Part shown: positions 1 through 654 of the stretch, one piece after another
Position numbering within the stretch: position 1 is the first letter of the stretch
Layout of the letters: the number at the start of each line of letters is the position of its first letter
Source of the DNA: a virus
Taxonomy: Duplodnaviria > Heunggongvirae > Uroviricota > Caudoviricetes
Virus record (IMG/VR): IMGVR_UViG_2681813205_000016
Location: 1-4,395 of that record
Direction: 5' to 3' (one strand)
Length of the DNA: 4,395 bases
Notes under the pieces: generated by a model
Databases searched by the model: none
Told to the model about the DNA's origin: nothing
Seen by the model: only the letters and a program-made list of their open reading frames with translations
Made by a program: the position numbers and the translations under genes

Positions 1-98
1 GCTGTGTCTATAGTATTTTTTTTTTTTAAATGCACCGGCCCCCCCAAAATTCCAACCAAGGTGTCCCGTCGGCAGCGTCAGATTTGTATAAGAGACAC
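1..98. other. Non-biological sequence: Illumina Nextera Read-1 transposase adapter remnant plus homopolymer junk at window/contig edge
   Basis: Positions 67-97 (CGTCGGCAGCGTCAGATTTGTATAAGAGACA) match the Nextera Read-1 adapter TCGTCGGCAGCGTCAGATGTGTATAAGAGACAG at 30/31 bases (33-mer alignment 66-98 has 3 mismatches). Upstream are a T12 run (16-27) and C7 run (39-45), and 2-13 is a degenerate CTGTCTCTTATA-like mosaic-end motif. The TCGTCGGCAGCGTC part is synthetic and not part of natural Tn5/IS50. Confidence 0.85.
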
Positions 99-427
99 CC
101 GGCCCCCTCCGGCAGGTTCGGGTCCGGCTTCCCACCCGCCGCTTCACGAGCAGACTTTTGTCGATGGCATTCGGTACAGAGCGTCCAGAGATTCGTCTCC
201 TCATTACCACCACCGAACTGAAGTGCAATGCGGTGCTCAAGTTCACTGTCACAAAGGTCAACCACACGCCCACAGAGACAGCACTGTCCGGCATCCCTCA
301 GCCAGATACGACGCTTGAGGGAAACCCGGGCACTACCACTGACCCGACGCTGTTCACCCTTCAGGACATTCACCCGCCGGGTGTTCAGAGTTTTGATTCT
401 GCCCGGTAACGTACGAAGCACAGCCAT
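26..427 (-). CDS. HNH endonuclease (phage packaging-associated type); 3' end (about 26-98) runs through adapter sequence and is unreliable
   Basis: 133-aa ORF with a canonical HNH core: CCLCG...SELEHRIALQFGG.NEETNLWTLCTECHRQK (CxxC, His, Asn, CxxCH). Strong SD GGAGAGG 6 nt upstream of the ATG at 427. The C-terminal tail (GCLLYKSDAADG...) is encoded by the adapter-like region. Confidence 0.78.
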   Translation of the reverse strand: MAVLRTLPGRIKTLNTRRVNVLKGEQRRVSGSARVSLKRRIWLRDAGQCCLCGRVVDLCDSELEHRIALQFGGGNEETNLWTLCTECHRQKSAREAAGGKPDPNLPEGAGCLLYKSDAADGTPWLEFWGGRCI

Positions 428-468
428 GTAAAATCCTCTCCATATAGCTTGTCACCAGAGGAAAGAAA

Positions 469-654
469 ATGTCATCGAAAAACCGGACCCGCAGAACCAC
501 AATCCGCAATATCCGTTTCCCCAATCACATGATTGAACAGCTCAATATCGCCCTTGAACATAAAGGTTCCGGTAACTTTTCAGCGTGGGTTATTGAAGCC
601 TGCAGAAGAAGGCTGTCAACAGAGCGTTCGGGTATGAATTACATAATTAAGTAA
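469..654 (+). CDS. DUF3950 family small protein (YlcI/YnfO-like, probable ribbon-helix-helix DNA-binding protein)
   Basis: 61-aa ORF MSSKNRTRRTTIRNIRFPNHMIEQLNIALEHKGSGNFSAWVIEACRRRL... containing the FSAWV motif that defines DUF3950. GAGG SD 7 nt upstream of the ATG. Divergent from the HNH gene, with starts 41 bp apart. Confidence 0.8.
   Translation: MSSKNRTRRTTIRNIRFPNHMIEQLNIALEHKGSGNFSAWVIEACRRRLSTERSGMNYIIK

Follow-up and report, generated by a model that had tools for sequence, protein, structure and literature searches.

Near one end of a stretch of tailed-phage DNA (IMG/VR record IMGVR_UViG_2681813205_000016), a gene for an HNH endonuclease and a gene of the DUF3950 family run away from each other from closely spaced starts. 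The locus raises the question of whether this pair marks the boundary between a lysis region and a packaging module, and of what the two proteins may do there. The whole stretch analysed, 4,395 nucleotides long, is called the window. A preliminary description, made from the letters of the window, had suggested a mosaic junction near the packaging module.

We consider the following reading likely, with some room left for doubt. The segment would come from a lambdoid E. coli prophage of the Stx-phage type, where the late (lysis) region reaches its downstream end ahead of the packaging module. Late transcription on the minus strand would pass through the holin, lysozyme, an antirepressor-like gene and Rz/Rz1, then cross the DUF3950 gene antisense, run through the HNH gene and, beyond the window, cross cos into terS and terL. 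The HNH protein would be a small endonuclease, with a full catalytic motif and zinc-binding cysteines, that serves as a terminase accessory and stimulates TerL at cos. The DUF3950 gene would encode a 61-amino acid protein with an extended strand and two helices, possibly a ribbon-helix-helix (RHH) dimer, and probably expressed apart from the late operon.

The arrangement as such matters little: it is already known, and annotations of Stx-converting phages and E. coli prophages routinely show this gene pair ahead of the terminase genes. The thread of wider interest is DUF3950, which is strongly conserved, adjoins cos in lambda and, in satellites of this phage type, is joined to a TerS DNA-binding domain.

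The divergent gene pair

The features at this end of the window are as follows.

1-65, no strand: non-biological leader with poly-T and poly-C runs, without an E. coli match
66-98, plus strand: Nextera Read-1 / Tn5 mosaic-end adapter TCGTCGGCAGCGTCAGATGTGTATAAGAGACAG, matching at 30 of 33 bases (3 mismatches)
99-427, minus strand: HNH endonuclease gene, codons 1-109 of 121, truncated by the contig end (PF01844, WP_024221908.1, PHROG 589)
428-468, no strand: divergent intergenic spacer of 41 bp, with one Shine-Dalgarno sequence per gene
469-654, plus strand: DUF3950 / YlcI-YnfO family gene, 61 amino acids (PF13132, NF041551, PHROG 949, RefSeq annotation)
469-614, plus strand: conserved DUF3950 core, codons 1-49, a homology island common to lambda, DLP12 and Qin

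Both genes of the pair are real, and the profile searches bear out the identities first given to them. The HNH open reading frame of the window scores 26.7 bits against Pfam HNH (PF01844; cut-off 21.4, E 6e-6), the full-length reference protein scores 27.0 bits against the same cut-off, and PHROG 589, an HNH endonuclease family, matches the window frame with an E value of 8e-43. The DUF3950 protein is identical to WP_001341372.1. It belongs to PF13132 (67 bits, cut-off 25, E 1.3e-18) and to the NCBIfam family YlcI_YnfO_N (NF041551; 34.1 bits, cut-off 30).

The start codon of the HNH gene is the ATG at 427-425 on the minus strand, and 41 bp separate it from the start codon of the DUF3950 gene. 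RefSeq annotates an identical gap (reference locus L001, 9330-9370), in agreement with the divergence and spacing first described. The DUF3950 gene is preceded by the Shine-Dalgarno sequence AGAGGA at 456-461 on the plus strand, and the HNH gene by GGAGAGGA, the reverse complement of 433-440. Since both ribosome binding sequences lie inside the 41-bp spacer, the space left is too small for a promoter. A scan of the window found no sigma-70-like site upstream of either start. The HNH gene is co-oriented with the lysis genes (holin, lysozyme and Rz/Rz1), which occupy the minus strand, as the first reading had it.

An adapter at the contig end

The left end of the contig is not phage DNA. E. coli homology starts at base 99 in all matches listed among the 1469 matching records, and directly before that base is the adapter TCGTCGGCAGCGTCAGATGTGTATAAGAGACAG (66-98), which matches once in the window and in none of 200 shuffles. 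This is Illumina Nextera adapter contamination: the adapter is at the contig end and E. coli homology halts there. The leader at 1-65 may be a degraded P5 adapter plus index, a likeness that is not significant. The specific candidate at 28-57 was rejected: its 8-nt index spacing is right, yet shuffled sequences reached its score in 27 of 500 cases.

The listed open reading frame at 26-427 (133 amino acids) is therefore chimeric and its end at 26 is artefactual, because the adapter occupies 66-98 and E. coli homology begins only at 99. The stop at 26-28 and the final 24 codons are translated adapter or junk. The preliminary description noticed adapter sequence at the window end and yet set the boundary of the frame, at 26, inside it. 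Its concern that the HNH frame might be an assembly chimera is true of the last 73 bases (26-98) only and not of the gene.

The contig end is degraded as well as contaminated. When window positions 99-1100 are compared with the best reference, NZ_CP045827, all six mismatches fall at 103-131 and positions 132-1100 are identical, so that about 33 bases past the adapter are error-rich. The real HNH protein has 121 amino acids (WP_024221908.1), of which the window encodes residues 1-109; the final 12 codons and the stop are absent. The window protein matches WP_024221908.1 at 106 of 110 residues, and residues ~99-110 are unreliable because all six mismatches lie in 103-131. The true sequence past the contig end is expected to continue as in NZ_CP045827, with GGTAGTGGCAGAGCGGACGACATCATCGGACTGTAA followed by the cos region and terS. 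The practical point is one of quality control: an untrimmed adapter and about 33 error-rich bases yield a false 133-amino acid HNH protein.

The packaging module in complete genomes

The window contains no packaging gene or cos site, and the evidence for them comes entirely from near-identical reference genomes. A packaging module had been suspected nearby, and in NZ_CP045827 it lies directly downstream of the HNH gene: after a gap of 288 bp come terS (Pfam Terminase_2) and terL (TerL_ATPase and TerL_nuclease), then a protease-capsid fusion (Peptidase_S78 and Phage_capsid), portal, connector and tail genes, all co-oriented. The Pfam families found in the reference are PF03354 and PF20441 on TerL and PF05065 and PF04586 on the capsid fusion. 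This layout recurs in a second prophage of the strain. It is thus in the reference genomes and phages, and not in the window, that the HNH gene is seen immediately upstream of cos, terS and terL in the same orientation; in the reference, the TerL that goes with it is of the Terminase_1 type and the capsid module has the HK97 fold.

The quartet DUF3950 / HNH / terS / terL was found in 94 phage records. Most of them are of Stx1a-, Stx2a- and Stx2c-converting phages, and 81 of the 94 cover at least 80% of the query. Among complete E. coli genomes, 465 of 5426 contain at least 80% of window positions 1-1100. The interpretation first offered for this locus is supported by the complete genomes, and the observation from which it started is partly confirmed.

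The gap between the HNH gene and terS contains a cluster of short repeats. The 19-kb reference locus has seven TGTTAAC sites, and six of them crowd into 121 bp inside this gap (L001 8751-8871, equivalent to ~130-250 bp past window base 99), as expected for TerS-binding repeats at cos; the cluster is likely a set of such repeats. A promoter-like site inside the cluster is probably a chance match and was set aside. A GC-rich segment directly 3′ of the HNH stop may contain the cos cut site. Deposited phages were rejected as a source for the cos position, as those with this module derive from prophages or were opened at an arbitrary point (phi330 begins at terL).

The HNH endonuclease

The HNH protein has the catalytic His...Asn...His residues and two CxxC pairs of zinc ligands. 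In the translation, aligned to the IscB HNH domain, these are C49-x-x-C52, H65, N79, C84-x-x-C87 and H88. The catalytic core lies entirely in clean sequence, at window bases above 160 and outside the damaged end.

HNH genes that adjoin cos and terminase genes are a widespread and known feature (PMC3592412), and HK97 gp74 promotes TerL cleavage at cos (PMC9410871, citing Kala et al. 2014). By analogy with gp74, we infer that the HNH protein is a terminase-associated accessory nuclease that would stimulate TerL cutting at cos. The two proteins are alike in size (119 amino acids in gp74, 121 here) and in having a CxxC zinc site. For both, the gene is the last one ahead of cos, and terS, terL and an HK97-fold capsid module come next. 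The two proteins differ in sequence: the BLASTP match has an E value of 0.063 (26% identity over 57 amino acids), which gives no detectable homology, so a shared function is argued from position and domain type only. We therefore describe the HNH protein as gp74-like by position and domain and do not file it as a close homologue. The partner TerS is of the Terminase_2 family and unrelated to HK97 gp1, and TerL is distantly related to HK97 gp2 (23% identity, E 2e-11). The comparison with HK97-like phages made in the preliminary description consequently holds for gene order and TerL and fails for the HNH sequence and TerS.

An HNH gene in such a place might instead be a free-standing homing endonuclease, a selfish mobile gene beside the terminase that has no packaging role. 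The HNH domain is common to homing enzymes (there are many PHROG HNH families), and three phage records label this gene "homing endonuclease", where others have "DNase". Against this, neither the position of the gene nor its 41-bp spacer varies among the 94 phage records and hundreds of genomes, and its 121-amino acid product has no added DNA-recognition domain. The gene order is also the one given for terminase-associated HNH proteins in PMC3592412 and PMC9410871. Sporadic presence and absence of the homing type was not seen across the 94 phage records and 465 genomes, in a search that was not aimed at HNH-less alleles. We regard a homing endonuclease as quite improbable and retain the terminase accessory as the preferred reading of the HNH gene.

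The DUF3950 gene

DUF3950 is a genuine gene, and purifying selection on the first 49 residues of its product is strong. In the alignment, residues 1-49 are nearly invariant and the C-terminal tail, from position 615 on, is hypervariable. Nucleotide similarity to K-12 ylcI (blastn, 79.5% identity) is limited to 469-614. As DNA homology to DLP12 or lambda stops at these limits and the flanks on both sides are unrelated, the mosaic junction that had been proposed here is present.

An alternative is that there is no DUF3950 gene, and that the 146-bp island, open by chance, works as DNA or RNA, for example as a signal for packaging or for recombination. It is true that the core is an isolated homology island amid unrelated flanks, that the frame is unannotated in the lambda RefSeq record and that consensus scans did not find a promoter for it. 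The substitution pattern argues strongly for coding: codons 1-49 of the window type and of the lambda/DLP12 type differ by 25 synonymous and 6 non-synonymous changes (pS 0.75, pN 0.053, pN/pS ~0.07). Homologues at 32-50% protein identity retain the same motif, a good Shine-Dalgarno sequence precedes the ATG, and Rfam has no match to DUF3950 or to any part of the window. A non-coding element is thus very improbable, and we treat DUF3950 as a protein-coding gene below.

The position of the gene is conserved too. In K-12 MG1655, ylcI lies 388 bp upstream of nohD, in agreement with what the preliminary description said of DLP12, and diverges from it. Across the Nu1-type enterobacterial loci, DUF3950 diverges from a nohD-type terS in 10 of 10, with a spacing of exactly 388 bp in nine, and it is antisense to Rz in every locus where Rz was detected. 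Phage lambda has a 64-amino acid DUF3950 frame (NC_001416 complement 48109..48303; L048 3110-3304, minus strand) whose protein is identical to K-12 YlcI. It sits 199 bp from the right cohesive end and is unannotated in NC_001416. In lambda, DLP12, Qin and Stx phages, DUF3950 is the last right-arm gene ahead of the packaging module and opposes the late operon. In each of the 152 phage records with a DUF3950 gene, the gene runs against the orientation of the record.

YlcI (DLP12), YnfO (Qin) and the lambda protein belong to the same family as the window protein (PF13132/NF041551), with 88-90% identity over residues 1-49, and their genes likewise diverge from the first packaging gene and run antisense to the lysis genes. 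They differ in the neighbour, a Nu1-type terS 388 bp away with cos in between, whereas here it is the HNH gene at 41 bp. Their C-terminal tails are unrelated to that of the window protein.

A scan of species-representative genome contigs gave 42 DUF3950 loci (L006-L047), of which only about 10 enterobacterial loci were usable. Most of the 42 appear to be contamination of assemblies of unrelated organisms with lambda control DNA (Streptomyces, Cohnella, Pedobacter, Shewanella and others); these suspect loci are on contigs of ~3.55 kb or ~48.4 kb with lambda sequence. Distant homologues with about 50% identity (L057-L060) occur in apparently non-phage contexts, and the family is thus not confined to packaging regions. 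One of them comes after cytochrome bd oxidase genes, and another has a fimbrial chaperone/usher pair on one side and a type I restriction-modification system on the other.

Predicted fold and expression of DUF3950

The DUF3950 protein may be a ribbon-helix-helix dimer that would bind DNA. The AlphaFold2 model has an extended segment (residues 11-18) and two helices (19-32 and 37-59), with pLDDT of 83-86 in the core. This predicted strand-helix-helix layout and the protein size are similar to those of Arc and Mnt of P22, and the "xIRFPxxLxxxI" strand and helix A of DUF3950 are in register with Arc "FNLRWPREVLDLV". The likeness is statistically weak: hhalign gives this alignment of strand and helix A to Arc/Mnt a probability of only 6.7%, and in Foldseek the RHH proteins HP0222 and AtaR2 are two of the top three matches, none significant (best E 4.4; E at least 4), so the RHH fold is a prediction. 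Neither single-sequence nor profile searches with DUF3950 found an RHH protein among PDB sequences, and a Pfam scan at E values up to 10 gave nothing besides DUF3950.

DUF3950 always opposes the late operon and is therefore probably expressed separately, outside late transcription. Consensus scans of the window, lambda and the reference gave no promoter upstream of the gene. The PADLOC defence-system models do not match DUF3950 or the window, and a literature search gave no function for DUF3950.

DUF3950 fused to TerS domains in satellites

Outside the window, two distant homologues (P0200 and P0208) consist of a DUF3950 domain fused to a TerS-type helix-turn-helix domain, and both are encoded in small islands with an integrase, an AlpA-like gene and a primase. 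Satellites embedded in helper prophages (L051 3590-4363; also L050 and L052-L054) have two tandem DUF3950 genes, one of which is a fusion. Over its last 53 residues, the fusion aligns with positions 2-54 of the helper-type TerS at 66% identity (E 1e-20). In E. coli CP027459, the satellite island sits within terL of a prophage that is exactly of the window's type, and it fits the helper-embedded satellites described in bioRxiv 10.1101/2022.07.18.500453. In L051 the satellite breaks terL at about codon 92, and the host prophage has a window-like DUF3950 / HNH / terS layout.

By mimicking the DNA-binding domain of TerS, Rpp of E. coli PICIs redirects packaging (PMC6739421). The satellite fusions resemble Rpp in that a satellite protein bears a copy of the helper TerS DNA-binding domain. 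They differ in that the TerS family is Terminase_2 and not Nu1, and in that the partner domain is DUF3950 and not the Rpp dimerisation helices. By analogy, the fusion is a possible Rpp-like packaging redirector, which we offer as a lead. It was rejected as Rpp itself: a PDB search matched only TerS N-terminal domains of other phages, and not Rpp.

A rival reading gives DUF3950 a role in the choice of packaging site or in conflict between helper and satellite, where it would bind DNA of the cos area or TerS and alter which DNA is packaged. The gene always adjoins the cos/terminase module in lambdoid phages, satellites in prophages of the window's type encode DUF3950 fused to a copy of the helper TerS DNA-binding domain, and the fusion is reminiscent of Rpp, a mimic of that domain (PMC6739421). 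Listeria TerI, a 65-amino acid protein that targets TerS, is likewise encoded by a prophage gene on the opposite strand (bioRxiv 10.1101/2025.02.27.640495). On the other side, DUF3950 is antisense to late transcription, which is the time of packaging, its distant homologues are in non-phage contexts, and PADLOC has no match for it. Short cos fragments alone suffice for lambda packaging, which also counts against a packaging role. We consider such a role unlikely. The combined proposal, in which DUF3950 would be a cos-proximal RHH protein for packaging specificity or satellite conflict and the satellite fusions would be Rpp-like redirectors of a Terminase_2-type terminase, is equally doubtful. 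If true, it would give a function to the gene left unannotated 199 bp from the right end of lambda. The reading that we prefer for DUF3950 is that of a possible RHH protein that is probably expressed separately.

Other genes of the lysis region

The rest of the window contains the following features.

4378-4214, minus strand: P21-type holin, N-terminus truncated by the right window end
3644-3958, plus strand: open reading frame of 104 amino acids (PHROG 1853, unknown function), between holin and lysozyme
3526-2993, minus strand: lysozyme
2722-2153, minus strand: antirepressor-like gene, 189 amino acids, with P22_AR_N and ORF11CD3 domains, between lysozyme and Rz
1996-1529, minus strand: Rz with embedded Rz1
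1281-1505, minus strand: conserved hypothetical open reading frame of 74 amino acids, between Rz and DUF3950
784-924, minus strand: conserved hypothetical open reading frame for a 46-amino acid hydrophobic peptide (WP_000347013-like), between Rz and DUF3950

The Pfam match of the holin begins at profile position 16, and about 17 N-terminal residues are absent. The 74-amino acid frame at 1281-1505 matches only positions 100-172 of the 291 in the phrog_2571 profile and so may be a gene remnant. The block at 3565-4180 is replaced in L005 by a minus-strand YdfR-family gene. The antirepressor-like block at 2136-2898 is absent from L001, the best match to 99-1100, and present in L005, which is from the same strain; the presence or absence of this gene is local mosaicism within the lysis cassette.
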